A stretch of 64,000 bases of DNA from Candidatus Melainabacteria bacterium RIFCSPLOWO2_02_FULL_35_15 (lineage in GTDB: Bacteria; Cyanobacteriota; Vampirovibrionia; 2-02-FULL-35-15), in assembly GCA_001784585.1 (NCBI GenBank), contig MFRN01000043.1, positions 80,966-144,965 on the forward strand. The letters are read 5' to 3'. Each line of letters starts with the position of its first letter. Within the stretch, counting starts at the first letter, position 1. The notes below the pieces were generated by a model. It searched no databases. It saw only the letters and a program-made list of their open reading frames with translations, and was not told the origin of the DNA. Of the stretch, positions 4,109 through 55,572 are shown in pieces. The translations under genes were made by a program, and so were the position numbers.

Positions 4109-5185
4109 TTAGTGGACAGTGCTTAATTCAAGTTGTTTATTTACAGCATTAAGCATTAAATCCGGAGTAACCTCCAGGCATTCAGGTGTTTTACAGGATT
4201 CTTTTCTCTTGTCAAATAAACAAGGCCTGCATTCCAGATTATCTGCATGTATAGCAAGGAATCTTGGATCCTCTGGTAATAGCTTTTTAGGATCAGTCGG
4301 TCCAAAAAATGCTACAAGTTTTTTCCCCAGTGCCACAGCTATATGCATCGGGGCAGAATCTACACAAACCAGCAGATCTGAAGAACTTATTAAAGCAGCA
4401 AGTTTTTCAATTGACAAATCAAATGAGCTAAAGTCAAAGAAATTTTTAGGCTTTGCAAAAAAAGAAAGTTTCTTGTGGATTTCAGCAATTGTTTCAGTAT
4501 CATCTTTTCCGCCAAGAAGAATTACAGTGTTATCATGATTTTCAAGTAGCTTCTCAATCAAGACAGCCCAATTTTTTGCTGCCCACCCCTTTAAAATATT
4601 TTTTTTAATACTCAGTTTACTTACTCCAGGATGAATAAATATTTTTTTTGCAAAATATCTTTCTTTTATTCTTGGATTTAAGGTTTCTTTTGCCCATTCG
4701 ATTAATGCAGGAGTCAGTTTGATTTCAGGCATCAGATACTTGCCATGAATTGTTTTTTTTATATCCGGCAACGCTGGCGTAAGTAATTCAGCAAACATAT
4801 TAGGTATATATTGAGTTGTATTTGGTTTTATGGGATCTGTTAAAAATAATTTGCTAAAAATCCCTTTATAAAAACCAATTTTGATTTCAGCATTACTTAA
4901 AAGAGCAACTATATTAGACTTATACGAGGAACCAGTTAAGATCAGGTATTTATAATATCGTGCTCTCAGTTCCTCTCTTAACTTAAAAATATTCAGATTT
5001 TTTTCTTTGAAGTCAAAAGCTCTAATTTTTCTGTATAAATGTGTCAGTTCCCCGATAATTACACTTCTTGGTTCACAAATTAAATCAATTTGATAATCGC
5101 TAAAATTTTCCTTAAAAATTTTTACTGTAGGTAAAAGGAGAATTTGATCCCCAATTCCTCCTGCATTGACAAATAAAGTCCTCAT
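4109..5185 (-). CDS. Glycosyltransferase family 9 (LPS heptosyltransferase-like)
   Basis: N-terminal LFVNAGGIGDQILLLP, the GT9 signature. The C-terminal region (..GPTDP..) is typical of RfaF/RfaC. The track ORF starts at a TTG at 5200. The internal ATG (MRTLFVNAGG..) at 5185 is the more plausible start. Confidence 0.8.
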   Translation of the reverse strand: MRTLFVNAGGIGDQILLLPTVKIFKENFSDYQIDLICEPRSVIIGELTHLYRKIRAFDFKEKNLNIFKLREELRARYYKYLILTGSSYKSNIVALLSNAEIKIGFYKGIFSKLFLTDPIKPNTTQYIPNMFAELLTPALPDIKKTIHGKYLMPEIKLTPALIEWAKETLNPRIKERYFAKKIFIHPGVSKLSIKKNILKGWAAKNWAVLIEKLLENHDNTVILLGGKDDTETIAEIHKKLSFFAKPKNFFDFSSFDLSIEKLAALISSSDLLVCVDSAPMHIAVALGKKLVAFFGPTDPKKLLPEDPRFLAIHADNLECRPCLFDKRKESCKTPECLEVTPDLMLNAVNKQLELSTVH

Positions 5186-5216
5186 AATGGTTCTAAACAA
5201 TTATTTTTATATTGTT

Positions 5217-5244
5217 GTAGAGACGTTATGCATAACGTCTCTAC
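5217..5244. promoter_or_regulatory. Perfect palindrome GTAGAGACGTT-ATGCAT-AACGTCTCTAC in the divergent region between the GT9 gene and the rplD operon promoter
   Basis: Read directly. 28-bp perfect inverted repeat immediately upstream of a TTGACA box. Confidence 0.45.
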
Positions 5245-5291
5245 TTATTGTTGACACAAGAACACTGAACATACACAAATAATAACAGGCG

Positions 5292-5320
5292 TTGACCAAA
5301 ATAGGATAGACCGTTAGAAT
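5292..5320 (+). promoter_or_regulatory. Candidate sigma-70 promoter for the rplD-led ribosomal protein operon (TTGACC-17-TAGAAT)
   Basis: Hexamers read directly: ttgacc, then aaaataggatagaccgt (17 nt), then tagaat, about 50 nt upstream of the rplD ATG. Confidence 0.4.
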
Positions 5321-11356: not shown

Positions 11357-11428
11357 GCGGGTGTAATTCAGTGGTAGAATGCAAGCTTCCCAAGCTTGAC
11401 GTCGCGGGTTCAAATCCCGTCGCCCGCT
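11357..11428 (+). tRNA. tRNA-Gly (anticodon CCC)
   Basis: Cloverleaf read by hand. Acceptor stem GCGGGTG/CGCCCGC with discriminator U. Anticodon stem CAAGC/GCTTG with loop TTCCCAA. T-loop GGTTCAAATCC. Lies between rplE and rpsZ. Confidence 0.85.
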
Positions 11429-16681: not shown

Positions 16682-17350
16682 CTATGCTACATTCCATTTC
16701 TTAATCGATGGCTTAATTATAAGCATTGTCCCTTCTGCACCAGGAACAGCTCCTTTAACTAATAAAAGATTTTTTTCTTTATCAAAATCTATAACTTCCA
16801 GATTTCTAACTGTTACTTCTTCATTTCCCATACGGGACGGCATGTTTTTCCCTGGCAATACTCTTCCCGGAAAAGTATGTGCACCGATAGAACCTGGAAG
16901 TCTGTGTGACTTAGAGCCATGCGTTTCAGGCCCTCTGTGTTTGTTATGCAGTTTAACCATACCCTGGAAACCTTTTCCTATAGATATCCCGGAGACATCT
17001 ACTTTTTCTTTTAAAACAATTATTTTTGAATGATCTAAAACTTGTCCAACTTTGTATGAATCTAATTCTTCAGGTTTTACTCTAAACTCCTTTAAATAGC
17101 TAAGATTTGGAAGATTTTTCTTTTTTAAGTTTCCAAGTTTTGGTTTATTTAAGTGTTTATCTTTTTTTACATTTGCCCCGATCTGTACTGCTGAATAACC
17201 GTCTCTTACAGGTATTTTAATATCAGTAATAATATTTTCAGCCAGTTCTATAACTGTTACAGGAACAGCATCTCCATCCTGGTTAAAAAACTGTGTCATG
17301 CCAAGCTTTTTACCTAATATCTCTATTCTGAATCTGGATAGCTGCGTCAT
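16682..17350 (-). CDS. rplC: 50S ribosomal protein L3
   Basis: ..[10 protein letters not shown].. N-terminal region and a C-terminal region typical of L3. Confidence 0.95.
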
Positions 17351-25457: not shown

Positions 25458-27041
25458 TTAAATATTAGTAAATGTATTTAATCTAAACTGCAGAGCTTCC
25501 AGAATATGTTCATCCCTAATGATATCTGAATTTCCTAAATCAGCAATTGTTCTTGCTACTTTTAAAACCCGATCAAAACTTCTGGCTGTTAGTGAAAAGG
25601 TTTTAATGGCTTCTCTGAGGATAAGTTCTCCGTTTTTGTCAGTCTTACAGAAATATTTTATTTCTTTTGAGGACAAGTGTGAATTTGATGGAATGTTTAA
25701 TTTCTTATATCTGTTTAACTGAATTTTTCTTACTTTTAAAACCCTTTCTTTAACACTTTCTGAATTTTCTGAGCTTTTAGTGCTCATTATTTCATTTTCA
25801 TTAAGACGTTTTACTTCTATTTGTAAATCTATTCTGTCTATTATGGGTCCTGAGATTTTGCCCTGATATTTTTTTATATTATTTAAATTACATTTGCATT
25901 TTTTAATATTATCTCCAAAATATCCGCATGGACACGGGTTACATGCAGCTATCAAAGTAAAATCACAGGGAAAAGTACAGCTTTTTCTGGAACGGGATAT
26001 TGTAACTTCTTTGGCTTCAATGGCTTGTCTTAAACTATCTAAAACCTGTTTTGGAAATTCCGTAAACTCATCCAAAAATAAAATTCCATTATGAGCCAGT
26101 GATATTTCTCCAGGCTGAGGAATTGATCCTCCTCCTATTAATCCTGCAGGGCTTATATTGTGATGCGGAGAGCGAAAAGGTCTCAGGGAAACTAAACTGT
26201 TTTCTTTATTTAATTTTCCTGCAGCAGAGTAAACTTGTGTGGTTTCAATTTTTTCTTCATAAGCCAGCGGTGGAAGTATTGTAGTAAGTCTCTGAGCCAG
26301 CATAGACTTCCCGCTGCCAGGCGGTCCGATCATTAGAACATGATGCTGTCCACCTGCAGAAATTTCCAAAGCTCTTTTAGCTAATGCCTGACCCTTTACA
26401 TCGCTAAAGTCAATGCTCAACTTGTTTATATTTTTTGTATCAGATAAAGTTGTATTTTTAAACGGGGAAATGTTTTTAAGATTATTTATTACATTTATAG
26501 CTTCTGCTAAATCAGATACAGGATAAATGTTAATCTCTTCTATTAATGATGCTTCAAGTGAATTATCTTTTGGAATAATTATGCCTTTTGCGCCTTTCTT
26601 TTTTGCAAGTATTACAAATGAAAGAACACCGTTTATTGGTCTGACCTTTCCGGAAAGTCCCAGTTCGCCAACCACATATAAACTTTCCAGATTTGTTTTA
26701 TTTATAACTTCAGGTTCATAACAGGTGAGTATTCCAATTGCAATTGGCAGATCATAAGTAGGCCCTGCTTTTTTTGTATCTGCAGGGGCAAGATTTACTA
26801 CAATTTTTTTACTTGGAAATTCCAACCCGCTTGATCTTATGGCAGATCTGACTCTTTCTCTTGATTCATTTATGGCTGTATCAGGAAGCCCTACTAAAAT
26901 AAAATTTGGCAGTCCACCTGCAATATCTGTTTCAATTTCTACAGCATATCCATTTACACCGATAAGTCCGCAAGAACTAATTTTTGCAAATGAGCTTTTT
27001 GTATCTGTTTCTATAATTTCAATTTCTTGCGTTGCAGTCAT
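25458..27041 (-). CDS. comM: YifB/ComM-family Mg-chelatase-like AAA+ ATPase
   Basis: Lon-like N-terminal domain. Walker A (GPPGSGKSM). MCM/ChlI-like C-terminal domain. Confidence 0.9.
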   Translation of the reverse strand: MTATQEIEIIETDTKSSFAKISSCGLIGVNGYAVEIETDIAGGLPNFILVGLPDTAINESRERVRSAIRSSGLEFPSKKIVVNLAPADTKKAGPTYDLPIAIGILTCYEPEVINKTNLESLYVVGELGLSGKVRPINGVLSFVILAKKKGAKGIIIPKDNSLEASLIEEINIYPVSDLAEAINVINNLKNISPFKNTTLSDTKNINKLSIDFSDVKGQALAKRALEISAGGQHHVLMIGPPGSGKSMLAQRLTTILPPLAYEEKIETTQVYSAAGKLNKENSLVSLRPFRSPHHNISPAGLIGGGSIPQPGEISLAHNGILFLDEFTEFPKQVLDSLRQAIEAKEVTISRSRKSCTFPCDFTLIAACNPCPCGYFGDNIKKCKCNLNNIKKYQGKISGPIIDRIDLQIEVKRLNENEIMSTKSSENSESVKERVLKVRKIQLNRYKKLNIPSNSHLSSKEIKYFCKTDKNGELILREAIKTFSLTARSFDRVLKVARTIADLGNSDIIRDEHILEALQFRLNTFTNI

Positions 27042-27073: not shown

Positions 27074-27143
27074 CATGTAACCTACGGTTACATGAAAAGA
27101 TTAAATTTTTCTCATATTCGTGAGATGTAACCTGGGGTTACAT
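27074..27143. promoter_or_regulatory. Two operator-like palindromes, ATGTAACC-N3-GGTTACAT, centred ~50 bp apart, upstream of comM
   Basis: catgtaacc-tac-ggttacatg at 27074-27094 and atgtaacc-tgg-ggttacat at 27125-27143, read directly. Confidence 0.4.
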
Positions 27144-27171
27144 GTAGAGACTTACCTCGGCAAGTCTCTAC
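27144..27171. repeat. GTAGAGACTT-N8-AAGTCTCTAC hairpin/palindrome at the 3' end of cdd
   Basis: Perfect 10-bp arms. Shares the GTAGAGAC arm sequence with the palindromes at 5217, 32887 and 33036. Confidence 0.4.
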
Positions 27172-28049
27172 AATTTAAACGCCCATGGCAAAAGCTCTTC
27201 GATAGTCGTTATGCCCATATTGTCAATAATAATTTTTGTTTTTGGATCACAATAATCCGATATTAACTGAAGTGCATCACCAGGTGGATATTTTACAAAT
27301 GGAAATGCAAATATAATAGCTTTAATCTTATTCTTTAAATTTTTTATCGAGCCGCTTGCCGTGTATGCTCCAAAGACAGCTTTTAACGGTTCTGCAGAGC
27401 ATCCAAATGAGCTGCTGTCTAAAGTACATGCTGAATATTTTTCATTTGTATTTTCTGTAAGCATTGCAATACCATATTTTTCTTTTGAATATGGTACATG
27501 AGCATGGTGAAGAGCAGCTCTGGCTAAATCCAAAGTATCCATTTCTTCTATGGTTAAAGTTTTCAGTTTATTTTGATCAAGCAATGGATGTGGTAACAAT
27601 TCTTTTGGTGTAAAAGTCCTTTCATGTCCGTCAAGTAAAATAATTCCCTTTGTATCTAGTTTTTGAGAAATAACTTCTCTGCATGCACCGCAGGGAGTCA
27701 AAAAATTAAGCTCTGCTTTATCTGTCTGTTTTTCAAGTGCTTTTGGAGCACTGATCGCAAGTGCAATAAATTTTTTATAGCCGGCTGAAATACCATTAAA
27801 GATTGCATTCCTTTCAGCACAGATACTTTGTGAAACAGTTGGTTCTACATTTGTACCTGAGAAAATTTTTGGTTTTTTGCTCTGGTCAATACCCACCACG
27901 ACAGCTCCTACAGGAAAATGGCTGTATGGAGACCACGAATTTGCTGATACCTCTTTTGCTAAGTATTTTAAGTTATCAAATGACAAATTTGAGCTATTTA
28001 ATATCTCTTCGATTTCTTTGTATGAATTTATAATTCCCTCTGGTGTCAT
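27168..28049 (-). CDS. cdd: Cytidine deaminase (two-domain, Cdd type)
   Basis: Zinc-binding CAERNAI and PCGACRE motifs. ~293 aa, like the homodimeric two-domain Cdd. Confidence 0.8.
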   Translation of the reverse strand: MTPEGIINSYKEIEEILNSSNLSFDNLKYLAKEVSANSWSPYSHFPVGAVVVGIDQSKKPKIFSGTNVEPTVSQSICAERNAIFNGISAGYKKFIALAISAPKALEKQTDKAELNFLTPCGACREVISQKLDTKGIILLDGHERTFTPKELLPHPLLDQNKLKTLTIEEMDTLDLARAALHHAHVPYSKEKYGIAMLTENTNEKYSACTLDSSSFGCSAEPLKAVFGAYTASGSIKNLKNKIKAIIFAFPFVKYPPGDALQLISDYCDPKTKIIIDNMGITTIEELLPWAFKL

Positions 28050-30098: not shown

Positions 30099-31455
30099 TT
30101 TGTGCTGTTGTTAAACTGTGCCTTATCACATCTAAAATTTTCTTAGCCTGAAAAATTTCAATTCTGCTGTTTTGTATTTTTGTATCTATATCAGGAATTA
30201 CAACCTGCTCAAAACCTAATTTTATACATTCTTTTATCCTGTTTTCAATTTGATTTACCTGCCTAATTTCACCCGTTAAACCTATTTCCCCAATAAAAAC
30301 TGTTTTTTTAGACGGGATTACATCCTGCTTGCAGCTAACTATTGACATGGCTATTGATAAATCAAGAGCAGGTTCACAGCTGCTTAATCCACCTACAAGA
30401 TTTACAAATAAATCATGCTTTGAAAAATTAAACCCAACCCTTCTCTCTAAAATTGCAATAATCTGAAGAACCCTATTATAATCAAGTCCGTTAACAACTC
30501 TTCGCGGGGTAGTATACGCCGTCCCGCCAACCAGTGCCTGAACTTCTGCAATAATTGTTTTGCTTCCTTCTACTATAGCTGAATAAGTGCTTCCAGGCAC
30601 CGGGTCTTTATTTTGAGACATAAAAAGGAAGCTGGGATTTGATATAGGTTTTAACCCGGTATCTTTCATTTCAAAAACTGAAATTTCATTCGTACAGCCA
30701 TATCGGTTTTTTGTAGCACGCAAAATCCTGAAATTATGAAATTTTTCTCCTTCAAAATATAAGACTGTATCTACTATGTGTTCTAAAACTTTTGGCCCGG
30801 CAATTAGCCCTTCTTTGTTTACATGCCCGACTAAAATTGTGGTTATGTTTTTGCTTTTTGCAAGATGTAAAATTTTATTTGCGCATTCTCTGACCTGGCT
30901 TACATTTCCGGCTGATGATTCAAGCTCAGGATGATATATGGCCTGGATAGAATCAATGATTAAAAATTCCGGCTTTTCTTTTTCAATTAAATTTATTATG
31001 GTTTCAAGATTATTTTCTGCAAGTAAAAGTAAATTTTCACTGTCCAAATTTAATCTCTGGGCACGGAGTTTTATCTGGTAAATAGATTCTTCGGCGGTAA
31101 TGTAAGCTACTTTTAATTTGTTTGACAAATAATCTGCTACCTGTAATAAAATCGTAGATTTTCCAATGCCAGGTTCTCCTGCAAGCAAGACTAAAGATCC
31201 ATGCACAAAACCACCGCCAAGAACGTTATCCAGCTCTTTATCAAATGATTTAATTCTTTGAACGCTTTGAACGTCTATAGTAGCAGCAGAGCTAAATAAA
31301 TTTTCTGAAGAGTTTAAATTTGATTTTGGCAATTTCTTATAAACTACTTCTTCTATTAAGCTGCTCCATGAATTACATTCAGGACATTTACCAATATAAC
31401 TTGGTGAAATATATCCGCATTCCTGACATGTCCATTTTGATGATATTTTAGGCAT
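30064..31455 (-). CDS. radA: DNA repair protein RadA/Sms
   Basis: N-terminal C4 zinc finger (CQECGYISPSYIGKCPECNSW). RecA-like ATPase (GEPGIGKST). Lon-like C-terminal domain. Confidence 0.95.
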   Translation of the reverse strand: MPKISSKWTCQECGYISPSYIGKCPECNSWSSLIEEVVYKKLPKSNLNSSENLFSSAATIDVQSVQRIKSFDKELDNVLGGGFVHGSLVLLAGEPGIGKSTILLQVADYLSNKLKVAYITAEESIYQIKLRAQRLNLDSENLLLLAENNLETIINLIEKEKPEFLIIDSIQAIYHPELESSAGNVSQVRECANKILHLAKSKNITTILVGHVNKEGLIAGPKVLEHIVDTVLYFEGEKFHNFRILRATKNRYGCTNEISVFEMKDTGLKPISNPSFLFMSQNKDPVPGSTYSAIVEGSKTIIAEVQALVGGTAYTTPRRVVNGLDYNRVLQIIAILERRVGFNFSKHDLFVNLVGGLSSCEPALDLSIAMSIVSCKQDVIPSKKTVFIGEIGLTGEIRQVNQIENRIKECIKLGFEQVVIPDIDTKIQNSRIEIFQAKKILDVIRHSLTTAQTISKPKHNCCP

Positions 31456-32986
31456 GATGATTTTGTGTAGAGGCGTAGTTGGTTAGATAATTGATTAATG
31501 TTCTTACTCCAACGCCTGTCGGTCCTTTTGGTCCATATTCATTTTCTTTATCGATCCATGAAGGACCAGCTATATCTATGTGAACCCAGGGAATATCAGA
31601 AACAAATTTTTCTATAAACACAGCACCATTTTGTGCACCTGATTTTCCTTTTGAACCAGTGTTTATCATATCGGCAATATCGCTCTTTATTTTTTCCCTA
31701 TCTTCATCATATAAAGGTAACTGCCACATTCTTTCACCAGCTTCATTTCCTGCTTTAATAATTTTATCTGCAAGTTTTTGATTATTTGTCATAACTCCGT
31801 TTGCAGTATCGCCTAAAGCTACTACACATGCGCCGGTTAATGTAGCCAGATCAATAATTTCATCCGGCTTTTGTTTTGCTGCATAAGATACTGCATCTGC
31901 CAGTGTTACACGTCCTTCCGCATCAGTGTTTAAAACCTCAATTGTTTTTCCGTTCATGGCACGGATTACATCGCCTGGTCTGTACGCTTTTCCGCTTGGC
32001 ATATTTTCAGCAGCAGCTACTATCATAGTAATTGCTACATCAGGCTGAAGTTCTTTCATAGCACTCATTGTGCTTATTGTTGCAGCAGAACCTGACATAT
32101 CGTCTTTCATGGTTTCCATGGAGTTGGCTGGCTTAAGTGAAAGACCACCTGAGTCAAATGTAATTCCTTTTCCTACAATTACAACATGTTTCTTAGGTTT
32201 TCTTTTTGGCGTATATTTTATTTCAATAAATTTTGGCGGTTCATCACTTCCCTGAGCTACAGCTAAAAATGCCCCCATTCCAAGTTTTTTACATGCAGCA
32301 CTATCTAAAACTTTTATTTTTAATTTATTTTCTTTTGCTACTTTTCTGGCTATATTTGCAATCTTTGTGGGAGTCATGGTTATAGCTGATTCAGCAACCA
32401 TGTCACGGGCAAGGGCCTGTGCTCTTGCTACAATATTTCCTCTTTTTATTCCAGATTCAATATCTTTTAGCTTTGACTTATCAGTTTCAGCAATGATTAA
32501 AGTTTTAATTTCCATTTTAGGTTCTTTTTTATCTTTTGATTTAAGTCTGTCAAACTCATAAAGCGCAAGCTGAGAAACCTCAGTTATAGCCTGTGCTGCA
32601 TTTTTTATATCAATTTTTCCTGCTCCTGCACCATGTAAAATGGTGCAGACTGTTTTTGCTTTTTCTTTTTTAGCACATCTTATAGCAGACGCAGATATCT
32701 TCCTTATACTATTTAAATCAAATTTTTCTTTTTCACCCAATCCTATTACAATAACTTTCTTTGCTGGGATCAAACCATTTGTTCTTATTACCAGAGTAGT
32801 CCCGGCTTTCCCTTTGAAATTTTCTTCCTTTATTATTTTTTTTATTAATCCATTCAACGCAAAATCGACTGCTCCTGTCCCTCCCCATAGAGACGTGCTA
32901 CGACGCGTCTCTACTTCGAATAAATTTAAAATCAATACATCACATGAAATGTTTTCCAGCTTTTGATTTTTTAGAGTTATCTTCAT
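31448..32986 (-). CDS. pepA: Leucyl aminopeptidase (M17 family)
   Basis: NTDAEGRL motif (VLNTDAEGRVTLADAV). ~500 aa M17 architecture. Confidence 0.9.
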   Translation of the reverse strand: MKITLKNQKLENISCDVLILNLFEVETRRSTSLWGGTGAVDFALNGLIKKIIKEENFKGKAGTTLVIRTNGLIPAKKVIVIGLGEKEKFDLNSIRKISASAIRCAKKEKAKTVCTILHGAGAGKIDIKNAAQAITEVSQLALYEFDRLKSKDKKEPKMEIKTLIIAETDKSKLKDIESGIKRGNIVARAQALARDMVAESAITMTPTKIANIARKVAKENKLKIKVLDSAACKKLGMGAFLAVAQGSDEPPKFIEIKYTPKRKPKKHVVIVGKGITFDSGGLSLKPANSMETMKDDMSGSAATISTMSAMKELQPDVAITMIVAAAENMPSGKAYRPGDVIRAMNGKTIEVLNTDAEGRVTLADAVSYAAKQKPDEIIDLATLTGACVVALGDTANGVMTNNQKLADKIIKAGNEAGERMWQLPLYDEDREKIKSDIADMINTGSKGKSGAQNGAVFIEKFVSDIPWVHIDIAGPSWIDKENEYGPKGPTGVGVRTLINYLTNYASTQNHHA

Positions 32987-33035
32987 TTGTTTCGTATTAT
33001 CCTTTCTTAAAAATCTGTAAAACTAATTTTAGCGT

Positions 33036-33059
33036 GGAGACGTTGCATGCAACGTCTCC
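33036..33059. promoter_or_regulatory. Perfect 24-bp palindrome GGAGACGTTGCATGCAACGTCTCC, followed by a half-site repeat at 33066-33080, in the pepA/5S divergent region
   Basis: Read directly. The core GAGACGTT-N6-AACGTCTC matches the palindrome at 5217-5244. Confidence 0.45.
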
Positions 33060-33103
33060 ATATCTTGCATGCAACGTCTTTACAATCTTCTATGTGTAAT
33101 ATA

Positions 33104-33132
33104 TTGCATTGAGTCATATGCTTGTGTATAAT
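33104..33132 (+). promoter_or_regulatory. Sigma-70 promoter of the 5S rRNA gene (TTGCAT-17-TATAAT)
   Basis: ttgcat, tgagtcatatgcttgtg (17 nt), tataat, ending about 7 nt before the 5S 5' end. Confidence 0.6.
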
Positions 33133-33138
33133 TAGTAG

Positions 33139-33257
33139 TCCTTGGTGAGGATGCGGCTGGATCACACTCGTTCCCATTCCGAACACGACAGTAAAGACAG
33201 CTAGCAGTGACAATATTTAGATCGCAAGGTCTTGAGAAGATAACCATTCGCCAGGGA
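33139..33257 (+). rRNA. rrf: 5S ribosomal RNA (orphan copy, no adjacent 16S/23S)
   Basis: ~119 nt. The terminal helix I pairs (tccttggtg with cgccaggga). Internal conserved CCCATTCCGAACACG..GTAAAG loop-C region. Own promoter upstream and an intrinsic terminator downstream. Confidence 0.75.
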
Positions 33258-33261
33258 TTTA

Positions 33262-33300
33262 TAAAAAACCCTCCGTTAATAGTGGAGGGTTTTTTATTTT
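33262..33300. terminator. Rho-independent terminator (CCCTCC-gttaatagtg-GGAGGG, then TTTTTTATTTT). Bidirectional: A-run upstream, T-run downstream
   Basis: Read directly. Lies between the 5S 3' end and the 3' end of the minus-strand gene 33321-33917. Confidence 0.7.
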
Positions 33301-52355: not shown

Positions 52356-54176
52356 ATGATACCAAAGAACATACCGAATCTTTTTATAGAACAGGCCAAT
52401 AAGTACAGTGAAAAAACAGCAGTTGAGTACAGATTAAGGCGTAATCAGCCATATAAAAGTATTTCCTGGACACATTTAAGTACTATCGTGCAGGAGGTAG
52501 CATATGGGTTAATTGAGCTTGGAGTTAAAAAAGGTGACAATGTTGCGATTTTATCCGGCACAAGATATGAATGGTCTGTTTTTGATTTAGCACTTTTGTC
52601 TATTGGTGCTGTTGTTGTACCTATATATCCCAGCTTACCTGAGCACAGTGTAAATTATATTTTAAATGATTCAATGAGTAAGATTATAATCCTCGAAGAC
52701 AAAGGACAGCTTCAAAAAATCAGATCACAGTGGGATAGTGTACCACAAGTTCGATATGCAATTGTAATTGAAGATCTTGGAGATCTGCCTCAATATGATC
52801 CCAGAATAATAAGTTTTAAAAATTTAAAAGACAAGGGCAAATTAAATTTTGCAGGTGATCCGGATTTGTTTGAAAGGCATCTTGCTGATATACGTGAAAA
52901 CGATCTCGCTTCAATAATTTATACATCCGGTACTACAGGCCCGCCAAAAGGAGTAATGCTTACCCATAAAAATATTTTAAGTGTTATATCTGTTCTTCCT
53001 GAGGTGTTGCCTATGAAACCATCTGACAAGTTTCTTTCTTTTTTACCTCTTTCTCATGTTTTTGAGAGAGTAGGAGGCCTTCATTATGCTGTTTCAACAG
53101 CTGTTACCATCTGTTACTGCTCAAGTATTGATCAAATAGGACCTGCTCTTAAAGATTCCGGTGCAACAATAATGTTAGTCGTTCCGAGGATACTTGAAAA
53201 AATCATAACAAAAATAAACCATGAACTTGAAGCTCTGCCTCCTTTTAAAAAAAATCTGTTTGCCCAGGCAATATCCTGCGGCAGGAAATTATTAGAGTTA
53301 AAAGAAAATAAAAAAAAATGTACATTTGATTTTTTCATTAATTCAGTTAAATATTTTTTTGCTGACAAATTTGTTTTTTCTTCAGTTCGTAAAAAGCTTG
53401 CACCAGAATTAAAACGTTTTGTATCTGGCGGTGCACCCCTTGCAAAAGAAATTGCAGAGTTTTTTTGTATTATTGGAATACCGGTACTTGAAGGTTATGG
53501 TTTAACTGAGACCAGTGCTCCTGCTACAGTAAACACTTTAAAACAAATGAAAATTGGCACTGTCGGAAAACCACTGCCAAATGTACAAATTAAAATTGCT
53601 GATGATGGTGAAATATTAATTAAGGGTCCAAATGTGTTTTGTGGTTATTACAAGGATGAAAAGGCAACAAAAGACTCTTTTGCAGACAACTGGTTTCTTA
53701 CCGGTGATATAGGAAGTATTGACAATGATGGATTTTTAAAAATTACAGGAAGAAAGAAAGATATAATTGTAAACTCTGCCGGAAAAAATATTGCTCCTCA
53801 AAATATTGAAAATGCCATAAGAAACTCACCATACATTAGCAATGTGGTAGTAATAGGAGACAAGAAAAAATATTTATCGGCACTGGTAACCCTGGAGCCA
53901 TCTTCAATATTAAATTACGCAAAGGAGTATAATTTATTTTTGGATAATGGAATGGAGAGCTTGGCAAAAGAGCCAAATGTTATTAAGTTAATAGATAAAG
54001 AAATTAAAATCAGAACTGCGGAATTTGCTGATTATGAACAAATCAGAAAGTTTACTGTTTTTCCTCAGGATTTTAGTATTGAATCAGGCGAGATTACACC
54101 TACTTTAAAAATCAAAAGAAAATTTATTGAGGAGAAGTATAAAAAAATAATTGATGATATGTATCCGACAGAATAA
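52356..54176 (+). CDS. Long-chain fatty acid-CoA ligase (AMP-binding superfamily)
   Basis: AMP-binding motif IYTSGTTGPPKGVMLTH. ..GYGLTET.. and ..TGDIG.. motifs. 606 aa. Confidence 0.9.
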   Translation: MIPKNIPNLFIEQANKYSEKTAVEYRLRRNQPYKSISWTHLSTIVQEVAYGLIELGVKKGDNVAILSGTRYEWSVFDLALLSIGAVVVPIYPSLPEHSVNYILNDSMSKIIILEDKGQLQKIRSQWDSVPQVRYAIVIEDLGDLPQYDPRIISFKNLKDKGKLNFAGDPDLFERHLADIRENDLASIIYTSGTTGPPKGVMLTHKNILSVISVLPEVLPMKPSDKFLSFLPLSHVFERVGGLHYAVSTAVTICYCSSIDQIGPALKDSGATIMLVVPRILEKIITKINHELEALPPFKKNLFAQAISCGRKLLELKENKKKCTFDFFINSVKYFFADKFVFSSVRKKLAPELKRFVSGGAPLAKEIAEFFCIIGIPVLEGYGLTETSAPATVNTLKQMKIGTVGKPLPNVQIKIADDGEILIKGPNVFCGYYKDEKATKDSFADNWFLTGDIGSIDNDGFLKITGRKKDIIVNSAGKNIAPQNIENAIRNSPYISNVVVIGDKKKYLSALVTLEPSSILNYAKEYNLFLDNGMESLAKEPNVIKLIDKEIKIRTAEFADYEQIRKFTVFPQDFSIESGEITPTLKIKRKFIEEKYKKIIDDMYPTE

Positions 54177-54228
54177 GTTACAGACGCCTCGCCGGGGCGT
54201 CTGTACAAAGTGGAAAGCAGTTTGCCTC

Positions 54229-55572
54229 ATGTTTCCTTGTTTCCTTGTTTCCTTGTTTCTTTGCTTCTCTGCCTCTTTTGCCCAAGAGAATTATCCGGTT
54301 ATAGAAAAAATTGAAAACATTATATTCGGGAAATCATTTCCAAATTTAAAAATCTCAAACAGGATTGGTGCAATTGAAAAAAATGTTTTTGGCAAGACTT
54401 ATCCGAATGATTCCTTGGATATAAGAACTAAACGCTTAAAAACCAATGTTCTTGGCATCTCTGATAATTTGCCGAATGAGAACAGTGAGACTGTTGAAAC
54501 ACCGTTAAATACAAATCAAGAGTTTCAGGACAATAATAATTATGAAAATTTGCAAACAGCAGAAATAAACAGTGAAAAATTCCAGGATATTCTCTATGAG
54601 TTTATAAATGAAGAGAGAAGTTTTAAGGGCTTGCTTCCGCTTGTAAAAGATGAAACAGCTCTTAGTGTTGCTTTTGAACAGGCAAAAGAAATATTAGCTA
54701 AAGGATATGTTTCATATAAAAATTTAAAAAACCAGTATCCGGACGAAAGATATACTCTCTCTGGCGGTACCGGTGCCATAATAGAAGTTATAAAAGGTTT
54801 TGAAAATGACTCAAATAAAAAACAGATTAAACTGACAGAACTTTTAGCTAAACAACTGGTACAGGCTATAGAAGCAAATCCGGATGATGCTCAGATTTTA
54901 TATAGTCCTTATATAAATCATTTTGGACTTGGATTTGCTCTGTCGAAAGACAAGAAAAAATTTGTTTCTGTAGTTGAGTTTGTAACAAAGGGAGGAGAAT
55001 TCGAACCTGTTAAACCACAAATAAGTCTTAATGAAAAATTAAAAGTTCTTGGCAAAATTAATCTTCCTTATAAATTTAAAGCAATATCAGTGGCATATTA
55101 TGATTCTGCCAGACTAAATTTTGAAGATGAAAATAATAATCCAGGATATTTTACAAGTGAAAGTCTTAAACCATATTTCCCTCCTCAGGATTATATTGCT
55201 TACAGCAATACTGCAAAAAGTACCTTTATAAAGGTAATAAAAGGAATTGGTGTAATAGGAGCAATAGGAGCAGCACCATTTACAGGCGGTGCCAGTGCCA
55301 TTTTAGCTCCTGCACTTATATCTTCAATTCAAAATGCTCCCCCGAGAGAAATACCTTTAAGAGGCGGGATAAAAGTTAATAAAAAAGGGGAATTTTCGGG
55401 AGAAATTGAATTAAATTATGAAGGGAGGGGAGGACTTTATTATGTTAGTGTTTTAGCTGAACTGCCCGGAGTTAATTTCCCGATTGTAATAAGCAGGAGA
55501 ACAGTCAGGGTTAATGGCTTTTTGCCAGCAGCAGGAAAAACTATACATGCAAATCAATCAAGAACAATTTAA
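54229..55572 (+). CDS. Secreted CAP/SCP (YkwD-like) domain protein. The signal peptide is encoded by an 8-bp tandem repeat
   Basis: Signal peptide MFPCFLVSLFLCFSASFAQE. Central region ..ILYEFINEERSFKGLLPLVKDETALSVAFEQAKEI.. resembles a CAP domain. The track ORF starts at 54151. The in-frame ATG at 54229 is the more plausible start. Confidence 0.5.
   Translation: MFPCFLVSLFLCFSASFAQENYPVIEKIENIIFGKSFPNLKISNRIGAIEKNVFGKTYPNDSLDIRTKRLKTNVLGISDNLPNENSETVETPLNTNQEFQDNNNYENLQTAEINSEKFQDILYEFINEERSFKGLLPLVKDETALSVAFEQAKEILAKGYVSYKNLKNQYPDERYTLSGGTGAIIEVIKGFENDSNKKQIKLTELLAKQLVQAIEANPDDAQILYSPYINHFGLGFALSKDKKKFVSVVEFVTKGGEFEPVKPQISLNEKLKVLGKINLPYKFKAISVAYYDSARLNFEDENNNPGYFTSESLKPYFPPQDYIAYSNTAKSTFIKVIKGIGVIGAIGAAPFTGGASAILAPALISSIQNAPPREIPLRGGIKVNKKGEFSGEIELNYEGRGGLYYVSVLAELPGVNFPIVISRRTVRVNGFLPAAGKTIHANQSRTI

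Follow-up and report, generated by a model that had tools for sequence, protein, structure and literature searches.

A perfect palindrome beside the ribosomal protein operon of a Melainabacteria bacterium is very probably a double-foot REP element

We analyzed a stretch of 64,000 nucleotides of Candidatus Melainabacteria bacterium RIFCSPLOWO2_02_FULL_35_15 (contig MFRN01000043.1, positions 80,966 to 144,965 of the forward strand), referred to here as the window, whose G+C content is 35%. At positions 5217-5244, in the spacer between rplD and a divergent gene of the GT9 heptosyltransferase family, it contains GTAGAGACGTTATGCATAACGTCTCTAC, a gapless perfect palindrome of two 14-nt arms; the chance expectation for a perfect 28-bp palindrome in 64 kb is about 2e-4 (64000/4^14). 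Very probably, this palindrome belongs to a dispersed family of double-foot repetitive extragenic palindromes (REPs), each 28 nt long, of the type that goes with subclass 2.4 of RAYTs (tyrosine transposases that are associated with REPs, also called TnpA_REP). The family has a characteristic architecture, is dispersed over spacers and genes, shows covariation of its paired bases and, in other phyla, is associated with RAYT-like genes. The kind of element is known and the lineage is new for it, so that the double-foot REP and RAYT subclass 2.4 system would be extended to the Melainabacteria.

A family of 28-nt palindromes in the window

A first-pass annotation of the window had pointed to the palindrome at 5217-5244 (copy A) and to a related one in the divergent spacer between pepA and the 5S rRNA gene, and had proposed two identities for them, either operators for a transcription-factor dimer or copies of a common REP-like element. 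The second of these proposals proved correct. The perfect 28-bp palindrome and the genes assigned to both spacers were borne out, as was the common core, since GAGACGTT-N6-AACGTCTC has just two occurrences in the window, at 5220 and 33037, and none among 100 shuffled sequences (0.00 expected). The other palindrome, described as 24 bp at 33036-33059, is indeed perfect and is longer than had been stated, spanning 26 bp at 33035-33060.

The family can be written as GTAGRG-N16-CYCTAC, with a length of 28 nt, and has at least five copies in the window. With up to three mismatches allowed, the pattern GTAGAGAC-N12-GTCTCTAC has four matches (5217, 27144, 32887, and 33034) where 0.13 would be expected, and a census of hairpins with at least nine pairs yielded a fifth copy at 54179-54205 (TACAGACGCC…GGCGTCTGTA). 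The five double-foot hairpins found in 64 kb compare with 0.1 expected from shuffles, and they occupy five different contexts: two divergent spacers, two gene 3' ends, and one position in frame within pepA.

Copy A lies 28 nt from the ATG of the GT9 gene (4109-5188, minus strand) and 47 nt from the -35 box of rplD (ribosomal protein L4; 5368-6033, plus strand), which is followed by rplW, rplB, and the remaining operon; folded as a DNA hairpin, it reaches -11.3 kcal/mol (z = -8.4). Copy B, GTAGAGACTTACCTCGGCAAGTCTCTAC (27144-27171), supplies with the TAG of its foot the stop codon of a minus-strand open reading frame (ORF) at 27168-28049, identified by synteny as a cytidine/dCMP-deaminase-domain gene. 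Copy C, ATAGAGACGTGCTACGACGCGTCTCTAC (32887-32914), is in frame within the coding sequence of pepA (31448-32986, minus strand), where it encodes the central insert of …DVLILNLFE-VETRRSTSL-WGGTGAV…. Copy D, GTGGAGACGTTGCATGCAACGTCTCCAT (33034-33061), which includes the perfect palindrome at 33035-33060, is found in the divergent spacer between pepA and the 5S rRNA gene (33141-33256), 2 nt from a conserved TAAAAT box (33026-33031, minus strand). Next to it, alignment with the relatives reveals a half copy, TTGCATGCAACGTCTTTAC (33065-33083), which is specific to the window genome and which we interpret as a local, partial duplicate of copy D because the relatives carry a single element there. The centre at this site, TTGCATGCAA, presents the hexamer TTGCAT on both strands, and the same hexamer is the -35 box of the nearby putative 5S promoter. 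Copy E, the REP-like TACAGACGCCTCGCCGGGGCGTCTGTA (54179-54205), starts 2 nt past the stop of the plus-strand ORF 52356-54176; it has the same AGACG…CGTCT core and folds as a DNA hairpin with -11.6 kcal/mol, and in its foot both members of a pair have changed, G>C on one side and C>G on the other, which gives GTAC on the minus strand. The feet read GTAG…CTAC at 5217 and 27144, GTGG…CCAT at 33034, and ATAG…CTAC at 32887, one foot being degraded in each of the last two.

The impression conveyed by the first-pass annotation, that the palindromes keep to divergent promoter regions and avoid positions downstream of genes, was a sampling artefact that arose because only two of the five copies had been seen; the copies at 27144 and 54179 are at 3' ends and the one at 32887 is inside pepA. 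A scatter of many copies irrespective of promoters had been named there as evidence against an operator, and five copies in mixed contexts within a 64-kb window correspond to it in spirit.

Architecture, covariation, and folding

Each copy found in the window and in its relatives is exactly 28 nt long. In an alignment of 21 copies and 14 pairs, double-sided changes affect 12 of the 14 pairs and 93% of the cells are paired, a level of pairing and covariation reached in none of 500 shuffles and abolished when the partner columns are slid. Positions T2, G6, C23, and A27 are invariant, and the GTAG/CTAC foot is nearly so. G.U pairs occupy only 3 of 293 cells, which suggests that the symmetry is kept at the level of DNA, on both strands, and not by an RNA-only helix. 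When folded as single-stranded DNA, the five window copies give -7.9 to -11.8 kcal/mol (z from -3.1 to -8.4), with 12 to 14 complementary pairs.

The stems often resemble those of non-orthologous copies in the same genome, as seen in the GCCATGGC centres of the genome of locus L133 and in the GGGGCATGCC of the genome of L135. Concerted, genome-specific stem patterns of this kind are a long-noted trait of REPs, and they account for the core shared by the window stems at 5217 and 33034, GACGTT…AACGTC, on which the first-pass annotation had drawn.

Orthologous sites and mobility in related Melainabacteria

The comparison was made with syntenic loci from relatives at graded divergence; five contigs with an identical L4 represent the same strain and are uninformative on conservation. 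At the site of copy A (site A, and likewise for the others), the element is in the same place in three relatives, namely L006 (GT9 protein 96% identical), L007 (81%), and L010 (71%), and is absent in L008 (76%). The sequences in the first three are GTAGAGACGCTATGCATAACGTCTCTAC, …GCTATTAATAGC…, and …GCTATGAATAGC…, with C:G in place of a T:A pair on either arm.

At site B, a 28-nt element overlaps or directly abuts the stop of the same gene in four genomes (the window, L133, L134, and L135), with very different stems (GACTTACC…, GACTTGCCATGGCAAGTC, GGACTGATCGCGATCAGTCC, and GGACATGCCGCGGCATGTCC). The stop of the deaminase-domain gene is the TAG of the REP foot in the window (27168-27170), in L133 (16287), and in L134 (16012), and in L135 (15762) the element begins 2 nt past the end of the gene. 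At this site, the element sets the C-terminus of a conserved protein or adjoins it. At site D, all five genomes compared (the window and L132 to L135) have a hairpin flanked by the conserved blocks GAAGATTGTAA and TAAAATTGGTTTTACAG, and here also the stems differ among genomes (GACGTTGCATGCAACGTC, GGCAGGTTT…AAACCTGCC, and GGGGCATGCC…GCATGCCCC).

Site C, within pepA, is variable. According to the PepA alignment, the insertion is present in the window, P0123, and P0124 and decayed in P0126, and it is missing in about a dozen other relatives as well as in P0121, the closest one (92% identity); P0121 has an in-frame pepA element of its own, 24 nt further along (VEAFHETPL). The relatives also carry in-frame elements at two positions in enolase and at one in an epimerase, and an element in the spacer upstream of upp is present in L134 and L135 and absent from the window. 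Overall, in-frame copies in housekeeping genes were located at 32887-32914 in the window, at 10097 in L132, at 7522, 10073, and 21069 in L133, and at 8001 in L135, with inserts that add about 4 to 9 residues (VETRRSTSL, VEAFHETPL, RGLPWQTST, VEALHATPL). The element has two stop-free reading frames per strand, and every intragenic copy uses them. The density of copies in the relatives is 1 to 6 per about 40 kb; by extrapolation, the whole genome of the window organism may hold hundreds. Because of the independent insertions in pepA and enolase and the presence or absence of copies in the upp spacer and at site A, we conclude that the family has moved within the clade.

Distribution across phyla and association with RAYT-like genes

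A scan of one genome per GTDB species with the pattern GTAGAGAC-N12-GTCTCTAC returned at least 120 loci, with 128 matches listed. About 139 matches would be expected by chance in the whole collection (596 Gb/4^16), and those listed are nevertheless not chance matches, because their inner 12 nt, left free by the pattern, are self-complementary in most: perfectly in 83 of the 128, an outcome with a chance of 2e-4 for six pairs of six, and in five of six pairs in 28 more. By record title, the listed loci comprise roughly 54 from Bacteroidota, 38 from Cyanobacteria, and 7 from Chloroflexota, together with others, among them Planctomycetota, Acidobacteriota, Ignavibacteriota, Zixibacteria, Spirochaetales, Cloacimonadota, Gracilibacteria, and several proteobacterial and desulfobacterial lineages. 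Some 28-mers are shared without any change between phyla: Trichormus, Desulfuromonas, Anaerolineales, and Prolixibacteraceae all carry …GTTGCATGCAAC…, and GTAGAGACGCACGGCCGTGCGTCTCTAC, published for Chloroflexus, was found by the scan in Spirochaetales, Chitinophagales, Paludibacter, and Desulfatirhabdium. Sharing of this kind between distant phyla points either to horizontal spread of the REP/RAYT pair or to a very tight constraint imposed by the enzyme. Long open stretches contain 29 of the 128 listed matches, and without exception the frame is VET..SL or RD..VST.

All-against-all clustering of the ORFs of the listed loci produced one dominant recurrent neighbour of about 180 amino acids, whose motifs (MPNHLH, WQ…YHDHIIRN, and NYIxNNP) are of the HUH/Y1 type (NHxH, WQ, YIxNNP) and whose top NCBIfam match is 'REP-associated tyrosine transposase' (E = 1e-18, 67 bits). 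A profile search placed a RAYT-like gene in 8 of the 120 listed loci (848 kb), always at 300 bp or less from the element or containing it, where the chance expectation for such a gene, if single-copy, is well under one locus of the 120. In L025, the RAYT-like gene has elements on either side, and in L024, L030, L074, and L102 the element is in frame within the gene, between the HuH and Tyr motifs. In-frame insertion of REPs into the tnpA_REP gene itself, at a point between HuH and Y, has been described as unique to subclass 2.4 (Quentin et al. 2018, PMC6006769).

A proposed mechanism and the points that weigh against the REP assignment

By analogy with other REP/RAYT pairs, the 28-mer, in which 5' GT[AG]G and 3' C[TC]AC frame a stem of some 12 bp with a loop of 4 nt, would fold into a hairpin wherever it becomes single-stranded, for example in the lagging-strand template. 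An HUH/Y1 nuclease would then recognise the hairpin plus the GTAG guide tetranucleotide at its foot, and would cut and rejoin the DNA so that copies spread and persist. As a full palindrome, the element would offer the same GTAG-hairpin on either strand. We know of no assay for the subclass 2.4 double-foot type. A RAYT presumably acts, or has acted, on the copies of this lineage; its cognate gene there is putative, and the element may be active or may have been orphaned after loss of that gene. Effects on neighbouring genes would be by-products and not the reason for the element, among them possible hairpins at RNA 3' ends, predicted for the copies at 27144 and 54179, and the overlap with promoters at 5217 and 33034.

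Some observations weigh against the REP assignment. In the window together with 15 Melainabacteria loci (about 279 kb, partly redundant), tblastn revealed no RAYT, and neither did a profile search, which gave no hit at E < 1. RAYTs are usually single-copy genes, so that their absence from a sample of 279 kb says little. The RAYT-like proteins of the other phyla score 67 bits where the NCBIfam cutoff is 80, and their matches to Pfam Y1_Tnp are weak or marginal. Finally, sites A, B, and D hold the position of the hairpin across relatives whose proteins are 71-92% identical, which is more positional stability than a purely selfish, freely moving element would show and could reflect selection for a host function.

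Alternative explanations

The last of these observations leads to the alternative that survives best, which we nonetheless consider unlikely: that REP-derived hairpins have been co-opted by the host, so that the structure itself, as a DNA cruciform or an RNA hairpin, is under selection at the conserved sites. Copies A and D would then serve as promoter-proximal or supercoiling-sensitive elements, and copies B and E as stabilisers of the mRNA 3' end or as attenuators. Such roles are consistent with the persistence of the hairpin at sites A, B, and D through full compensatory turnover, with copy B being the source of the stop codon in the window, L133, and L134 and directly abutting it in L135, and with the mRNA stabilisation and effects on termination reported for E. 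coli REPs (background in PMC6006769). However, hairpin-templated repair or gene conversion between copies can restore perfect palindromes without selection, and the resemblance of stems within a genome fits concerted evolution and not site-specific selection. The element at site A has moreover been lost in L008 with no visible consequence, and in no case does a T-run follow the copy in the orientation of its gene.

The co-option alternative also draws on the conserved -10-like boxes that adjoin the hairpin at three loci. At three intergenic sites (GT9, pepA, and upp, the last at about 8790 in L134 and about 8900 in L135), the hairpin lies 2-13 nt upstream of a conserved TAAAAT or TATAAA, and the flank at the pepA and upp sites reads (G)TTAAAATTNGTTTT. 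At the GT9 site, the box is the TATAAA at 5206-5211 on the minus strand, 5 nt from copy A, within a flank (CAATGATGTAAAAATAAT) conserved in L006 and L007; it is a putative promoter element of the GT9 gene. The adjacency, seen at three independent sites, too few for statistics, may come from a preference of the element for inserting into promoter spacers or from a co-opted promoter element, and a cruciform or a bound protein at copies A, D, and upp could overlap the -35 region. The stems turn over completely at two of the three sites (pepA and upp), between relatives whose proteins are 71-92% identical. That some REP hairpins of the Melainabacteria clade have been domesticated as structural promoter elements is a speculative idea to which we give little credence; if true, a cruciform or a RAYT-derived DNA-binding protein would replace the -35 box or serve as a supercoiling-sensitive switch.

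The operator proposed by the first-pass annotation, a binding site through which a dimeric transcription factor would co-regulate the divergent GT9/rplD and pepA/5S promoter regions, is very unlikely. What speaks for it is the perfect dyad of fixed 28-bp length, the presence in both divergent spacers of copies with a common GAGACGTT-N6-AACGTCTC, and the promoter-occluding position, 2-13 nt upstream of the conserved TAAAAT/TATAAA boxes, of copies A and D and of the upp copies of the relatives. An operator is not expected in coding sequences (pepA, enolase, and the epimerase) or at gene 3' ends, where members of this family are also found. Nor do orthologous copies keep their bases: pairing, foot, and the 28-nt length are retained, base identity is moderately conserved at site A only, and sites B and D are wholly different in L133 to L135. 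The spread of the same 28-mers in unrelated phyla, beside transposase genes, argues in the same direction.

The distance to the rplD promoter is not fixed either. Both -35 candidates that the first-pass annotation had placed next to the palindrome exist, TTGACA at 5250 and TTGACC at 5292, and only the latter, as TTGACC-17-TAGAAT (5292-5320, plus strand, outside the element), receives a promoter score and is conserved, being kept in all relatives. This promoter block is nearly invariant in five genomes, and its -35 box is 47, 37, 93, and 62 nt from the element in the four genomes for which the distance was counted from the sequences.

The region of copy B offers a much better candidate for an operator, judging from its sequence. 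The small palindrome ATGTAACC-N3-GGTTACAT occurs there twice, about 50 bp apart (27075-27093 and 27125-27143), at 0-30 nt from copy B and upstream of a ComM-like (Lon_C/Mg-chelatase) gene (25458-27041, minus strand). It recurs in the relatives at 16687 and 16736 (L133), 16042 and 16092 (L134), and 15802 and 15852 (L135), and the boxes, their spacing, and the intervening DNA are kept in the window as well as in L134 and L135, and for the most part in L133. The half-site, GTAAC-N5-GTTAC, presumably bears a loose resemblance to LexA-type boxes. This motif behaves as an operator would, and the REP does not, because the motif keeps its bases and the adjoining REP keeps only foot, length, and pairing.

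An intrinsic terminator that works in both directions, or an insulator that separates the divergent genes, is the least probable reading: a terminator scan does flag 5217-5244 on the plus strand (a 12-bp stem followed by TTATTGTT), but upstream of it there is no end of a plus-strand gene, the genes on either side point away from it so that there would be only antisense transcription to stop, the copy at 33034 and the others are unflagged, and those at 27144, 33034, and 54179 have no T-runs.

Other kinds of element were considered and rejected. A miniature inverted-repeat transposable element requires 70-300 bp, terminal inverted repeats that enclose a non-palindromic interior, and target-site duplications, whereas this element is 28 nt and palindromic throughout; no flanking duplication was evident around the elements in the sequences inspected. 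The back-to-back GAGACG/CGTCTC sites of BsmBI/Esp3I are coincidental, as the family also has GAGGC, GGGGC, and GAGTC stems, and a dif/Xer-type 11-6-11 site was set aside on account of the copy number and the variable inner arms.

Genomic neighbourhood of the copies

For both the GT9 protein and PepA, the closest homologues that carry a name belong to metagenome-assembled genomes (MAGs) of Candidatus Melainabacteria, several of them from the Rifle aquifer. The ribosomal-protein cluster begins at rplD, right after the divergent GT9 gene, without rpsJ and rplC upstream, unlike the classical S10 operon. A tRNA gene (11357-11428) is located inside this cluster, between rplE, which is upstream, and rpsN/rpsH. 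At the Rfam gathering threshold, the window contains two tRNAs and the 5S rRNA, and nothing else.

The PepA of the window has a 7-residue C-terminal extension, STQNHHA (31448-31470), found in none of 17 aligned relatives, and the frame of this extension overlaps the start of the downstream RadA/Sms-like gene. On the other side of copy D, the 5S rRNA gene is free-standing, with no 16S or 23S gene within the 64-kb window, an arrangement conserved in all relatives examined. It has a plausible promoter of its own at 33104-33132, TTGCAT-17-TATAAT, and, at 33261-33297, a strong hairpin of the terminator type that comes with a T-run (ATAAAAAACCCTCC/GGAGGGTTTTTTAT). An octamer tandem repeat, TGTTTCCT x 4.8, lies at 54230-54267, 25 nt downstream of copy E. 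Low-complexity repeats are likewise found around the internal REP of RAYT genes from other phyla, in the form of an HDS repeat in L074 and of a Q/P-rich tract in L030.

Comparison with known systems

Recognising the element as a REP avoids a misannotation, in which a striking palindrome next to a ribosomal-protein promoter would be recorded as a regulator site when it is, in all likelihood, a selfish or domesticated hairpin. The Melainabacteria copies provide clear examples of stem turnover at fixed positions, of stop codons supplied by a REP, and of repeated in-frame insertions (PepA and enolase). They may be of use in studies of the persistence of RAYTs and of REPINs, the inverted pairs formed by REPs, and to annotation pipelines, which can miscall such insertions as sequencing errors and such hairpins as terminators or operators. 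Our literature search returned no paper that joins Melainabacteria with REP, REPIN, or RAYT, and a search with the element strings (GTAGAGACG and GTAGAGAC) returned only primer and cloning-site matches.

The closest counterparts are the REPs of TnpA_Y1 subclass 2.4, equivalent to group 4 of Bertels, whose enzymes carry the motifs NH[IFV]H, WQ, and YIxNNP, are abundant in Cyanobacteria and Bacteroidetes and scattered in other phyla, and have long or 'double foot' REPs with 5' GT[AG]G and 3' C[TC]AC (Quentin et al. 2018, PMC6006769). Group 4 has been described as common in Cyanobacteria, Chlorobia, and Caldilineae, with 17 classes in total (Bertels et al. 2017, PMC5581495), and the superfamily of GTAG-tagged REPs was defined, and the presence of REPs within genes noted, by Di Nocera et al. 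(2013, PMC3733652). The supplement of PMC6006769 gives, beside the subclass 2.4 genes of Chloroflexus aggregans, GTAGAGACGCACGGCCGTGCGTCTCTAC and GTAGGGGCACAGCGCGCTGTGCCCCTAC, of 28 nt with a 12-bp stem and a 4-nt loop, and for Calothrix GTAGAGACGCGAAATTTCGCGTCTCTC. The Melainabacteria loci contain both outer-stem types of the two Chloroflexus sequences. Our elements thus resemble subclass 2.4 REPs in their GT[AG]G/C[TC]AC ends, in length, stem, and loop, in outer stems identical to the published GTAGAGACG… and GTAGGGGC…, in their occurrence in Cyanobacteria, Bacteroidetes, and scattered phyla, and in their in-frame insertion into genes, the RAYT gene included. They differ from the published cases in their host, a MAG of a non-photosynthetic sister group of the Cyanobacteria, in that several copies are positionally conserved between species, and in having no cognate RAYT in the roughly 279 kb searched.

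A precedent for recognition and cleavage by TnpA_REP of a perfect stem with GTAG comes from Stenotrophomonas maltophilia and Marinomonas, whose perfect-palindrome REPs are reported to be processed in vitro (Corneloup et al. 2021, PMC8266576); these REPs belong to another RAYT subclass and are single-footed. The REPs of E. coli and their mosaic arrangements (bacterial interspersed mosaic elements, BIMEs) are also short dispersed palindromes with a GTAG guide at the foot of the hairpin (Messing 2012, PMC3479197; PMC6006769). Further shared traits are the mostly extragenic location, often 3' of genes, the species-specific consensus, and the formation of single-stranded DNA hairpins for an HUH/Y1 enzyme. 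The E. coli elements differ in that their palindromes are imperfect and bulged, have one foot only, and usually come as inverted pairs (BIME/REPIN), and in belonging to subclass 2.2, whereas those of the Melainabacteria are perfect, symmetric, and mostly solitary.

The CIRCE operator of HrcA is a palindrome of the form 9-N9-9 located upstream of genes. The REP studied here is similar to it in size, in its perfect dyad, and in being found upstream of genes. Operators such as this one, however, occur at promoters only and retain their bases from one orthologous promoter to the next, whereas the REP family keeps only pairing and foot and is also found in coding sequence and at 3' ends.

Rickettsia palindromic elements, of about 100-150 bp, are inserted in frame in protein genes. 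Both they and the REPs described here are selfish palindromic repeats that are tolerated in coding sequence as short extra loop peptides; the sequences are unrelated, and the insert in our case is 28 nt, or about nine residues (VET…SL or RD…VST).

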